Shown here in pieces: positions 38,901 to 44,900 of a stretch of DNA of 45,487 bases. Position numbers: made by a program. Position 1 is the stretch's first letter. Every line of letters starts with the position of its first letter. Location of the stretch: IMG/VR virus record IMGVR_UViG_2872185964_000010. One strand, written 5' to 3'. Source of the DNA: a virus. Lineage: Duplodnaviria; Heunggongvirae; Uroviricota; Caudoviricetes.

Positions 38901-41900
38901 AGGTCTCACTCAACCTGGAAATCGAACCATTTGATGAGAACCGTGTGAAAATCAAACACAAACTCTCATATGTTCGCCCGACTAACCGCGGGAAAATTTC
39001 CGAAGAAGACACCACCGAAACGCCGATGTATGTCAATCGCGGTGGTCGCCTGACTATTCTGCAGGAAGATCAGGGACAATTACTGACTCTTGCCGGTGAA
39101 CCTGACGGAAAACTCCGCGCAGCAGGTCATTAATATCGTTCTTAATTAACCGATTATTTATCTCATCACTGAATATCTTTATATAGTGAGGACTTATTAT
39201 GTCTCAGAACTTAGACGCAACCGCAATTAATCAAATCCATGCCCTTATTTCTGCTCAGGGTGTTAATGAAATTATCAGTAAGATTGGTGCCGATGCTGTG
39301 GCATTGCCTGAGAATTTCCGCATTCATGATCTGGAAAAATTTAATTTAAATCGCTTCCGTTTCCGTGGTGCGCTTTCCACTGCCAGCATCGATGACTTTA
39401 CCCGTTATTCTAAAGATCTTGCAGATGAAGGCACCCGCTGCTTTATCGATGCCGATAATATGCGAGCCGTCAGTGTGCTTAACCTGGGTACTATTGATGA
39501 ACCAGGTCACGCAGATAACACCGCCACACTCAAACTGAAAAAGACAGCACCGTTCTCTGCTCTGTTGTCTATTAACGGCGAGCGTAACTCCCAGAAGTCA
39601 CTAGCAGAATGGATTGAAGACTGGGCAGACTATCTTGTGGGCTTTGATGCTAATGGTGACGCTATTCAGGCAACAAAAGCGGCTGCGGCTGTCCGTAAAA
39701 TCACGATTGAAGCAAACCAGACCGCTGATTTTGAAGATAATGACTTCAGCGGCAAACGCTCCCTGATGGAGTCTGTCGAAGCGAAGACCAAAGACATTAT
39801 GCCAGTGGCATTTGAATTTAAATGCGTTCCGTTTGAAGGTCTGAAAGAACGTCCGTTTAAATTACGCCTCAGTATTATCACTGGCGATCGTCCTGTACTG
39901 GTTCTGCGCATTATTCAGCTGGAGGCGGTGCAGGAAGAAATGGCTAACGAATTTCGTGATCTGCTTGTTGAGAAATTCAAGGACAGCAAAGTAGAAACCT
40001 TTATTGGTACTTTCACCGCCTGATTTCATTACTGCAAATGCCCCTGCGGGGGCATTTATGGAAACGTAATTTACTCAATAATCGCCGGATGGTGAGGGAT
40101 TCTTTTTACCAGAATTCAGCGCGGTGCAGCGCATATACGTGGAGAACAAAATGTCATTTATTAAAACTTTTTCCGGGAAGCATTTTTATTATGACAGGAT
40201 AAATAAAGACGACATCGATATTAACGATATCGCGGTTTCCCTTTCAAATATCTGTCGCTTTGCCGGTCATCTTTCGCACTTCTACAGCGTCGCCCAACAT
40301 GCGGTTCTTTGCAGCCAGCTGGTGCCGCAGGAATTTGCTTTTGAAGCGTTAATGCATGATGCAACAGAAGCGTATTGCCAGGACATTCCCGCACCACTGA
40401 AACGCCTTCTTCCTGACTATAAACAAATGGAAGAAAAAATAGACGCCGTAATCCGTGAGAAATACGGGTTACCCCCAGTTATGAGTACGCCCGTGAAATA
40501 TGCCGATCTCATCATGCTGGCAACCGAACGCCGCGATCTCGGGCTTGATGATGGCTCTTTCTGGCCTGTACTGGAAGGTATCCCGGCAACAGAGATGTTC
40601 AACGTGATTCCACTGGCACCGGGCCATGCCTACGGGATGTTTATGGAACGCTTTAACGAGTTATCGGAGTTACGCAAATGCGCATGAATGTTTTCGAAAT
40701 GGAAGGGTTTCTTCGTGGGAGATGTGTACCGCGAGATCTGAAAGTAAATGAAACAGATGCTGAATACCTGGTGCGTAAATTCGATGCGCTTGAAGCTAAA
40801 TGTGCAGCACAGGAAAACAAAGTAATACCAGTGTCAACTGAACTGCCACCAGCAAATGAAAGTGTTTTGTTATTCGATGCTAACGGAGAAGGCTGGCTAA
40901 TTGGCTGGCGTTCTCTCTGGTACACCTGGGGACAAAAAGAAACCGGAGAATGGCAGTGGACATTTCAGGTCGGGGACCTTGAAAACGTCAATATCACTCA
41001 CTGGGCAGTAATGCCAAAAGCACCGGAGGCTGGAGCATAATGACCACTTTCACCGATAAGGAACTGATTAAAGAAATCAAAGAACGAATCGGCAGCTTAG
41101 ACGTGCGAGACAATGTTGAGCGCCGTGCTTATGAAATTGCTCTGGCATCACTGGAAGCAGAGCCGGTGGCGTGGCTTCATTCAGACAATGGCTTAGGTAT
41201 TCCGGCAATAACCAGGAGCAAAAACATTGCTGACAGTTGGTTATCAAAGGGCTGGTATGTTCAGCCGCTATATATGGCTCAGCCAGTGTCGGTGGTGCCG
41301 GATGCTCTTCCGTCTTTAAATAATGGCATAGTCGGCTTTGATGAAGGCTGGAACGCCTGCCGCGCCGTCATGCTTCATGGTGCCGAACCTGTAAGCCAGA
41401 CTTACAAGTTGAACAAGCTGTCGGGCAACCCTCCTGTAACTCCGGATGGTTGGATAAGCTGTAGTGAGCGAATGCCAGAGGACGGTCTGAACCGCCCCGG
41501 GAATCCTGGAGACTAAACTCCCTGAGAAAGAGGTAAACAGGATGACTAAAAATACTCGTTTTTCCCCCGAAGTCCGTCAGAGGGCGATTCGTATGGTTCT
41601 GGAAAGTCAGGGCGAATATGACTCACAGTGGGCGGCAATTTGTTCCATTGCCCCAAAGATTGGCTGTACACCGGAGACTCTGCGTGTCTGGGTACGCCAG
41701 CATGAGCGGGATACCGGAGGCGGTGATGGCGGGCTCACCACCGCTGAACGTCAGCGTCTGAAAGAGCTGGAACGTGAAAATCGTGAACTGCGCCGCAGTA
41801 ACGATATCCTTCGCCAGGCTTCCGCTTATTTTGCGAAGGCGGAGTTCGACCGCCTCTGGAAAAAGTGATGCCACTGCTGGATAAGCTGCGTAAGCTGTAC

Positions 41901-44900
41901 GGGGTCGGACCGGTATGCAGTGAACTACATATTGCCCCGTCAACGTATTACCACTGTCAGCAACAGCGACATCATCCTGATAAACGCAGTGCCCGTGCGC
42001 AGCGCGATGACTGGCTGAAGAAAGAGATACTGCGCGTATACGATGGGAATCATCAGGTATACGGTGTGCGTAAAGTCTGGCGTCAGTTGTTACGGGAAGG
42101 TATCAGAGTGGCCAGATGCACTGTGGCACGTCTCATGGCGGTTATGGGACTTGCCGGTGTTCTCCGGGGTAAAAAGGTCCGTACGACCATCAGCCGGAAA
42201 GCCGTTGCCGCAGGCGACCGCGTAAACCGTCAGTTCGTGGCAGAACGACCTGACCAGCTGTGGGTGGCTGATTTTACTTACGTCAGCACATGGCAGGGCT
42301 TCGTCTATGTGGCGTTCATCATTGATGTGTTTGCCGGATACATCGTGGGGTGGCGGGTCTCATCGTCCATGGAAACGACATTCGTGCTGGATGCTCTGGA
42401 GCAGGCGTTATGGGCCCGTCGACCGTCCGGCACGGTCCATCACAGTGATAAAGGTTCTCAGTATGTATCGCTGGCCTACACACAGCGGCTTAAGGAAGCC
42501 GGATTACTGGCATCAACAGGAAGTACAGGCGACTCGTATGACAACGCGATGGCGGAGAGCATCAATGGTCTTTACAAAGCGGAGGTAATACACCGTAAGA
42601 GCTGGAAAAACCGTGCAGAAGTGGAACTGGCCACACTCACGTGGGTGGACTGGTATAATAATCGACGATTGCTGGAAAGGCTGGGCCATACTCCTCCGGC
42701 AGAAGCAGAAAAAGCTTATTATGCTTCCATCGGAAACGATGATCTGGCAGCCTGAGTTCACAGATAAAACACTCTCCAGGAAACCCGGGGCGGTTCAGTC
42801 AGCACGTAATTATTTTATGTGATGGCGCATTCGTTCTTTATGCGCAATATCGAGACGGTGAGTTTTTTGATGTTGTCCGCAATGGTGAGGAGTTCTTCGA
42901 AACGCAGAGCCGCAATGTAACCCACTGGATACCGCTACCGGAGCCGCCGCAGGAGGTAAATTAATGAACAACTTAATGACAACAAAACAAGTCGCCGAAT
43001 TCTGTGGCGTTTCAATATCGACGGTGCTTCGCTGGAACAGCGTAAACCGGAGAACTGGCAAGAAATACAGACCAGACTTTCCAGATCCTGATATTAAATC
43101 CTGCCCAAATAAATGGGCATCACAAAAGATTTACAGGTTTGCAGGAGTCATTGAGTAATATGCCTTAGATCAGATGTAAGCTGACACACCACTATGGCAC
43201 AGAGTCAAACCTAATCTAACTACCTGCTCTGTGCCAAAAGAAGATACTACTAACATAAGTATAAAATAATCAACGGGACACAGCTCATCTGTACTACTCC
43301 ACAAGCGGGATAAGTTTTTTACCTGTGTCTTCAAAGAATGAAAACGAAGACCAGCGGTAAGTATATAAAAAAGCCACTTTGCCTGCATGTTCTTCGATAG
43401 CTTTTTTTAAATATGACTTGCGTTTACTGACTTCTGGAAATTTATCCGAAAAGATAACTATTGCTCTTGATGATAGTCCACCACCATTCCGCATAAAGAG
43501 AGTAAACTCACTCAATCTAAGCATATTGAAATTTGCACAATTCGCTACATCATTATCAAACTTAGCAACTATACTTTTTATTTTGTCATACAGACTGACC
43601 ATATCCCTAAAAATATTTTCATCTGCCAACTGAATATTTCTTTCATTCAACTCTGTTATATATTTATTATCATCCACTATTCCAATAGGATATCGAGCAT
43701 TTAAAACTATATCTCGAGACGCAACTTTCAATAACTTCAGTTCGTCAACGGTTAATGGCAAACCTAAATCAACAGCCATACAATCAAGTTTATGCCCATA
43801 ATTACAAAACTCATTTTCAATAGCTTTTTTTCTCGCACCGAGATTCATTAGAAGAATCGCTGACTTTAACAACATTTCAAAAGCATACCCCAACATAAGT
43901 CTGCTAGTTTGATCAGTTGCCGATGCGATATCGATGTATTCATGAACAATAGGAGATTTCTTACTTGCTGCCCGAAGCAATTTTTTGTTTCGCTCACCTT
44001 CACTTCTCAACAGCTTCGCAGATAAATACAGTTTTTTAGACTCTGTTAACCAAGCCTTTCGATCAAATATACCTTTCCCATTTTTCTGCGTGATTATCTC
44101 GCTCTGCATCAATAACTCCTATGTTATTAGAACCAAACCTGCCACTAATCAATTGCAAATCTCGTCGCTGTTATTTTGACCAGACATTACATTGTCTCCA
44201 TTTGTAAAATACCACTTAACTAACTTGAATGAGAAATTGTAAGTATTCCGACAAAACAGACTATCAGTTGGGGTCTGAGCTAGCACAAGTAATGATCGAT
44301 TCAACCCTCTCCCACCACGCCTGGTAGGCTTTACGCTGTTCTTCTAGATAATCGCTCTTGTCATAAACCTGCCAAACCCCTGGCAGTTTATGGCCGAGCA
44401 TTATTTCTGCAATATGAGGAGCAGTAAGATCAGAAAAGTTTGTTCGTGCTGTTCGCCTCAAATCATGAAGAGACCAATGAGGGAATTGATACCCCAAACG
44501 CCGCCATGCGTACTGCATTAAATTGTAAGGCAGCGACTGCAATGATGTTCGACCAACGGGTTCCCTGCTTCCTTCCTTAGTAAAAAGCATATCGGAACCA
44601 TTGTTCATAGAGATAGCGTTCTTTATAAGCTCCTCCACCGGTTCAATAATGGGCCTCTTTAGCGGTTCGCCTGTTATCTCCCCAGTCTTATGTCGTTCTG
44701 GTGGTACAGTCCATACCTTATTAATGAAATCAAAATCGTCCACCCTGGCAGTAATTAGCTCTGAACTACGGCAGCCAAAATGCAGCAATAGCTTAATGAA
44801 GGCCCGGTATTTAGGAACCATTCGAGAACCATCGATCGCAGCATAAAGGATTTTAATTTCATCATGTGTCAGAAACCGTTTCTTCTGACCTTTACGGATA

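Follow-up and report, generated by a model that had tools for sequence, protein, structure and literature searches.

A full-length IS629-group element in an early-left DUF551 gene of an mEp460-like prophage from a Shigella chromosome

Results

The 45,487-nucleotide stretch of viral DNA considered here (IMG/VR record IMGVR_UViG_2872185964_000010, Caudoviricetes; the whole stretch is referred to below as the window) contains a gene for a DUF551 domain protein that is interrupted by a complete insertion sequence (IS) of the IS3 family, IS629 group. The element, its two open reading frames (ORFs), the two parts of the interrupted gene and the relevant neighbouring features are collected in Table 1. 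The element starts with TGAACCGCCCCGGG... and ends with ...GCGGTTCA / CCCGGGGCGGTTCA; its length falls within the range of approximately 1.2 to 1.55 kb that characterizes the IS3 family, its termini are of the imperfect TG...CA type (TGAACCGCC...GGCGGTTCA, with agreement at 23/25 positions), and a repeat search recovered them as arms of 26 nt with 92% complementarity and a spacing of 1260 nt, which constitute the longest inverted repeat of the entire 45-kb window. A perfect GTC adjoins the element on each side, in keeping with the 3-4 bp target duplications of the family, and the empty site holds a single GTC. A sequence-only reading of the window had described an intact IS3-family element spanning positions 41488-42796 and flanked by a GTC duplication. 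The duplication, the left boundary and the intactness of the element (full length, both repeats, orfA and orfB open) are all borne out, while the right boundary had been set one base short by omission of the terminal A and lies at 42797. The combination of element, duplication and interrupted gene is not a chance pattern.

What the insertion has done to the DUF551 gene can be read from its empty site. The 158-residue product of the interrupted gene consists of 149 gene residues followed by nine residues encoded by the IS (LNRPGNPGD). Deletion in silico of positions 41488..42800, i.e., the IS plus one GTC, joins the flanks in frame and yields an ORF of 203 amino acids, and the gene reconstructed in this manner is identical at 612/612 positions to genes annotated as 'DUF551 domain-containing protein' in six E. 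coli records. The restored protein matches the DUF551 profile (PF04448) over positions 1-68 of 68 (74.5 bits, E 1.3e-20, cut-off 22), whereas the interrupted ORF matches profile positions 1-13 only, so that the disruption proposed by the sequence-only reading is confirmed. That reading had also called for a comparison with IS-free alleles, which gives the same answer: on the IS-free locus L002 (NZ_CP126931), the counterparts of window segments 38204..41487 and 42798..45487 lie next to each other and have precisely the three bases GTC in common, the right flank being 99.96% identical. The N-terminal module of 115 residues, with matches to phrog_5117 and phrog_660, is kept in the interrupted product; the insertion thus cuts the gene product after residue 149, with retention of the N-terminal domain and loss of the C-terminal DUF551 domain. 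A search of PDB sequences with the restored DUF551 protein returned no match. Other short members of the 90% cluster of this protein (P0048, P0049 and P0051) were considered as further IS fusions and rejected, as they contain no IS-derived residues; P0049 and P0051 are plain truncations of this DUF551 allele, and in P0048 it is a variant allele that is truncated (compare P0052).

The IS629 copy is structurally complete, possessing both terminal repeats, orfA, orfB, the DDE triad and the ALIL pseudoknot. The frames of orfA and orfB are offset by 323 nt, equivalent to -1, which is the arrangement of two overlapping ORFs that defines the IS3 family, and orfB scores 309 bits against the NCBIfam model transpos_IS3 (cut-off 160). 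The ALIL match covers model positions 1-117 of 117 (gathering score 50), and the A5G run lying inside it is the likely slip site. By frame arithmetic, a -1 slip at this run opens an OrfAB frame of 404 amino acids, so that the sequence contains the ingredients of the programmed -1 frameshift signal of the family, namely an A-run, a downstream structure and a continuous OrfAB. The DDE triad of this OrfAB is formed by D244, D303 and E339, whose spacings of 59 and 36 residues agree with the approximately 60 and 35 residues expected of an IS3-family transposase.

As to the identity of the element, a gap-free alignment over 1310 bp with a copy from E. coli O157:H7 (RefSeq 'IS3-like element IS1203 family transposase') gives 96.1% nucleotide identity with 51 substitutions, and OrfAB is identical at 392 of 404 positions (97%), leaving 12 amino-acid differences. 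The value exceeds the approximate isoform-level threshold of 95% nucleotide identity to named copies of the IS629 group. IS629 subtypes have been reported to differ by 4-5%, IS1203 and IS3411 being isoforms, with duplications of 3-4 bp and with one subtype linked to Shigella (Rump et al., PMC3271280); the identity to the O157:H7 copy is therefore within the published subtype spread. Our element shares with IS629 (Shigella sonnei) and its isoforms IS1203 (E. coli O111:H-) and IS3411 the length of 1310 bp, the TG...CA ends, the 3-bp duplication, the placement of orfA and orfB in 0/-1 frames and the ALIL pseudoknot; it differs from the O157:H7 isoform by the substitutions given above and is identical instead to copies in Shigella-type genomes. 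Among 5426 complete E. coli genomes, the closest copy is 99.7% identical to it. The exact OrfB falls into a 90% protein cluster together with entries named 'IS629 transposase OrfB' and 'IS3-like element IS629 family transposase', and the Shigella boydii entries in that cluster hold an OrfB sequence identical to this one. The designation 'IS629-like' adopted in the sequence-only reading is thereby supported, and these resemblances make the element most likely a Shigella-type isoform of IS629. The IS629 of Shigella sonnei reportedly goes back to Matsutani and Ohtsubo in 1990.

The interrupted gene is rare. The 158-residue fusion protein is recorded on one public contig, CP026872.1 (assembly GCA_002950295.1), the sequence of which is identical to the window; this contig is a closed 4.71-Mb chromosome, and the assembly is listed among Shigella genomes in a 2025 paper. 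The insertion junction was absent from the 5426 complete E. coli genomes searched and from the GTDB species representatives, and given that these searches produced no other carrier of the junction, nothing can be said about its spread. The intact 203-residue DUF551 protein occurs on 666 contigs, the exact OrfA on at least 1000 contigs, and the exact OrfB (295 amino acids) is multi-copy in public Shigella-type genomes. In the sister Shigella-type genome CP026866.1, copies identical to our element at 1310/1310 positions occupy different sites, namely L010, where the duplication is CAG, and L012, and this isoform has therefore moved recently in these lineages. Among ten sampled copies with the same OrfB, eight carry 3-4 bp duplications of their own and two do not; rearrangements have thus already involved some of the copies in these lineages. 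The identical copy at L010 (1121..2430) of CP026866.1 lies within an IS911 copy, flanked on the left by TTGATGTCAG and on the right by CAGACTCCCT, and two other IS629 copies of the same genome (L009 and L012) have non-matching flanks, as is typical where IS copies have recombined with one another in the past.

In its structural half the window shows approximately 97% identity to phage mEp460. After the S24 repressor gene, the + strand reads yfdP, yfdQ (DUF2303), yfdR (HD phosphohydrolase), a first DUF551 gene and the second DUF551 gene with the IS, and beyond the latter follow a gene of 64 codons, an opposite-strand gene for a 271-residue orphan and the integrase, which adjoins yjjG in the source just as it does in the IS-free strain. 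This layout is that of a lambdoid early-left operon running from a CI-like repressor toward the integrase, in agreement with the early-left placement made by the sequence-only reading. The same reading had put the insertion next to an alpA-integrase module, of which the integrase neighbourhood stands but the name alpA does not: in the Pfam search the 64-residue protein did not match Phage_AlpA (PF05930), showing only sub-threshold matches to the helix-turn-helix families HTH_17 and HTH_23 and to MerR; a weak match to Xis_Gifsy_1 was also seen, and its phrog_1553 excisionase match extends over the whole length (Table 1). The product would function like an Xis/AlpA-type helix-turn-helix protein and is better called excisionase-like than AlpA. 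An AGGAGG precedes the start of this xis-like gene, whose ATG shares bases with the stop codon of DUF551 (TAATG, 42962-42966), and the IS629 copy lies 164 bp upstream of the gene. A consensus promoter and terminator scan of 40000..44300 detected no terminator inside the IS above shuffled expectation and no outward promoter at the right IS end above chance.

A further IS3-family element in the same prophage, implied by the sequence-only reading when it counted the early-left copy as a second one, was located in the lysis region and proved to be IS911. It splits Rz within the lysis cassette, standing between the lysozyme gene and the remainder of Rz. It carries an A AAA AAG (A6G) slip site, its orfA and orfAB frames are open, E. 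coli holds an empty site that agrees with it at 600/600 positions, and excision of the IS in silico gives back a continuous Rz frame; the prophage is probably lysis-impaired. IS911, known from Shigella dysenteriae, has the family and architecture in common with our IS629 copy, and the copy seen here is likewise intact, with a 3-bp duplication; it differs in its unrelated nucleotide sequence and repeats, its A6G slip site, the lack of an ALIL match and its target, Rz instead of the early-left operon. A blastn comparison of the two elements at word size 7 returned chance matches only, the longest shared exact word being 13 nt, and their inverted repeats diverge after TGAA. With no usable DNA homology in common, IS629 and IS911 are unable to recombine with each other, and recombination between them, or a composite transposon formed by them, was rejected on these grounds. 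The suggestion that the two elements could mediate rearrangement or deletion must accordingly be divided: it fails for the pair, and it survives, as a possibility only, for exchanges with chromosomal copies of their own kind. Such rearrangement could occur only with copies of the same IS elsewhere in the IS-rich Shigella chromosome, and the fact that both elements keep matching duplications (GTC and GTA) indicates that neither has taken part in an exchange of this sort since inserting.

Table 1. Coordinates of the IS629 insertion, the interrupted DUF551 gene and associated features of the window
Feature	Position	Strand	Remarks
DUF551 gene, 5' part, codons 1-149	41040..41487	+	reads on into the IS and ends at 41516; 158-aa product
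DUF551 gene, 3' part, codons 150-203 and stop TAA (42962-42964)	42801..42964	+	without in-frame start codon of its own
Target site duplication GTC, left copy	41485..41487	.	immediately outside the IS
Insertion sequence of the IS629 group (IS3 family), full length	41488..42797	+	1310 bp
Left terminal inverted repeat TGAACCGCCCCGGGAATCCTGGAGA	41488..41512	+	23/25 positions equal the reverse complement of the right end
orfA, 108 aa, helix-turn-helix N-terminal transposase part	41542..41868	+	Pfam HTH_Tnp_1, E 1.8e-12
ALIL pseudoknot, frameshift stimulator of the IS3411/IS629 group	41823..41939	+	Rfam RF01497, 116.2 bits
Likely -1 slip site, A5G run (AAA AAG)	41860..41865	+	read from the sequence; just before the orfA stop, inside the ALIL match
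orfB, 295 aa, DDE catalytic part, -1 frame relative to orfA	41865..42755	+	Pfam rve, E 5e-28; HTH_21; rve_3
Right terminal inverted repeat ...TCTCCAGGAAACCCGGGGCGGTTCA	42773..42797	+	
Target site duplication GTC, right copy	42798..42800	.	immediately outside the IS
Excisionase-like helix-turn-helix gene, 64 aa	42964..43158	+	phrog_1553 excisionase, whole length, E 5.9e-35
Tyrosine integrase, 407 aa, with arm-binding domain	44264..45487	-	Pfam Phage_integrase, Arm-DNA-bind_3, Phage_int_M
IS911, 1249 bp, IS3 family, in the Rz lysis (spanin) gene	25712..26960	+	99.8% identical to 'IS3-like element IS911 family' copies
IS911 target duplication GTA	25709-25711 and 26961-26963		

Other features of the window

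At its opposite end the window opens with a gene (1..1629, + strand) for a reverse transcriptase-TIR fusion (RT-TIR). The protein scores 670.8 bits with the NCBIfam model 'TIR domain-containing anti-phage reverse transcriptase', above the cut-off of 600, and has a PADLOC match to RT-TIR_XII with E 3.8e-187; the gene represents prophage cargo beyond the tail-fibre genes. As the profile match sets in only at about residue 70, the true start codon may lie downstream of the TTG that was called. A retron msr RNA was not found in 1..2700 by an Rfam E-value search and may lie outside the window. Full-length Rfam IS009 RNA (222.8 bits) maps to 2117..2315 on the - strand, within the tail-fibre assembly gene 2074..2658. 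A solitary DNA methyltransferase (27891..28943, - strand; Pfam N6_N4_Mtase, PADLOC MTase_II E 1.3e-151) adjoins the lysis cassette.

The 271-residue orphan gene between xis and int (43297..44109, - strand) has a GC content of 33-36%, as against approximately 47% around it, and the exact protein is present on 643 contigs. No match was obtained for it in Pfam, NCBIfam, PADLOC, PHROGs or PDB sequences, and a single-sequence AlphaFold model, with a mean predicted local distance difference test score (pLDDT) of 37.8, was unusable; position and composition fit an acquired cargo gene. In the immunity/early region, C4 antisense RNA and isrK adjoin each other as Rfam matches of 82 and 64 bits, respectively, at 35999..36187 on the - strand, and this pair is a P1/P7-type antisense control module known from other lambdoid prophages. 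Two sets of direct repeats were also recorded. A perfect 24-nt repeat, AAAAAACCCGCTCAGTGGCGGGTT, occurs at 29420..29443 and 30097..30120, 677 nt apart, and is hairpin-forming and terminator-like; two 38-nt repeats (GTGAATCTCCTGCACTACCCCTAGTG...), 65 nt apart and 84% identical, occupy 35118..35220, at the start of a gene with a replication-initiator-type helix-turn-helix (HTH_36, DnaD_N) in the source annotation, and may be protein-binding sites.

Discussion

Our analysis leaves us nearly certain that the locus records a recent, genuine transposition of a resident IS629, of the Shigella-type isoform, its target being the second DUF551 gene in the early-left operon of a lambdoid prophage that resembles mEp460 and sits beside yjjG in a Shigella chromosome. 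Going by what holds for IS3-family elements at large, OrfAB would arise from -1 slippage at the A5G run ahead of the orfA stop codon, a frameshift that the pseudoknot would stimulate, and the element would have moved by a copy-out/paste-in route through a circular intermediate, duplicating 3-4 bp of its target. The insertion may also have reached beyond the gene that received it, for the xis-like gene, formerly joined to DUF551 through TAATG, is now parted from the operon promoter by a further 1.3 kb of IS; its expression after induction is probably lower, and a polar effect of IS629 on xis is plausible from the arrangement of the genes. Considered together, IS629 in DUF551 and IS911 in Rz amount to the stepwise IS-driven prophage decay that is usual in Shigella.

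Several points weigh against this account, some of them touching the event itself and others its consequences. The junctions are known from one assembly; the transposase activity and the frameshifting of the IS629 copy are predicted from sequence; and the assignment to the Shigella subtype is indirect, having been made through identical copies and cluster names and not through the S. sonnei IS629 reference X51586. With regard to polarity, xis possesses its own AGGAGG ribosome-binding site, phage antitermination could override any polar effect, and the scan gave no sign of a terminator in the IS or of an outward promoter at its right end, so that polarity is something we infer.

Among the competing explanations, the one that holds up best is that the insertion was selected: severing xis from the early-left promoter would lock in place a prophage with useful cargo (the retron-TIR, the methylase and the orphan gene), and IS911 in Rz would remove the risk of lysis. 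The position of the IS directly upstream of xis, whose start overlaps the stop of the interrupted gene, the disabling of Rz by a second IS and the presence of a Retron-TIR defence gene aboard the prophage all speak in its favour. Nonetheless, the insertion is found in one genome only, with no sign of spread or fixation, IS629 prefers prophages without any need for selection (62% of its copies in four O157:H7 genomes sit in prophages; PMC3271280), IS-derived pseudogenes of Shigella accumulate by drift (PMC7373316), and xis retains a ribosome-binding site of its own. We consequently hold selection to be unlikely. The more novel proposition that the two insertions, IS629 by uncoupling xis from the early-left operon and IS911 by breaking Rz, have in a non-neutral manner made a lambdoid prophage with a retron-TIR into a fixed part of the Shigella chromosome appears distinctly unlikely to us; were it true, IS elements would be agents that domesticate a defence-bearing prophage.

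It is very unlikely, moreover, that the element is a dead relic unable to move or to make transposase. The 12 amino-acid differences from the O157:H7 transposase could speak for such a relic, yet the copy has its full length and both of its repeats, orfA and orfB are open, the DDE triad and the entire pseudoknot are present, copies elsewhere that have duplications of their own share its exact sequence, and the exact OrfA and OrfB are widespread.

An assembly artefact, in which a multi-copy IS was misplaced or two contigs were joined through it and the cell contains no such insertion, could be suspected in view of the multiple IS629 copies in these genomes and the single assembly from which the insertion is known. 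A chimeric join would not, however, create a perfect 3-bp duplication; in IS-free genomes the two flanks directly adjoin each other, with order and reading frame preserved (612/612, with the GTC overlap), and the record is a closed chromosome of 4.71 Mb. The perfect duplication and the exact restoration of the reading frame render a chimera extremely improbable.

Finally, the idea that IS629 and IS911 act jointly, recombining or forming a composite transposon, and so mobilize or delete the intervening 14.5 kb is invited by their common + orientation on either side of 26961..41487 but can be given practically no weight, the two being different elements without significant nucleotide similarity, each still framed by its own matching duplication.

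The transposition of IS629 into the DUF551 gene has close parallels in other genomes. In an O157:H7 lambdoid prophage (NZ_CP066753, L001 2905..4214), an IS1203-type copy with a GCA duplication lies in a small early-left accessory gene at an equivalent place, immediately preceded by a DUF551 gene and immediately followed by xis-int; the target there is DUF4222 and not DUF551, and prophage, site and IS subtype are all different. The comparison suggests that the early-left region tolerates or attracts insertions of the IS629 group. IS-driven gene loss is, furthermore, a hallmark of Shigella (Hawkey et al. 2020, PMC7373316), and the event described here is the same kind of strain-specific knock-out by an expanded IS, with no substantive difference from the pseudogene formation documented in that work. 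In this sense the finding is already-known, ordinary biology, and IS629 in prophage accessory genes is routine.

What the insertion contributes, in a single Shigella genome, is a strain-specific knock-out of a phage DUF551 gene and, probably, a hampered excision of the prophage, and its junction sequence can be used as a strain marker. It carries little weight beyond annotation and raises no new question; rather, it illustrates how IS629 and IS911 bring about prophage decay in Shigella and E. coli, a process that is well documented.

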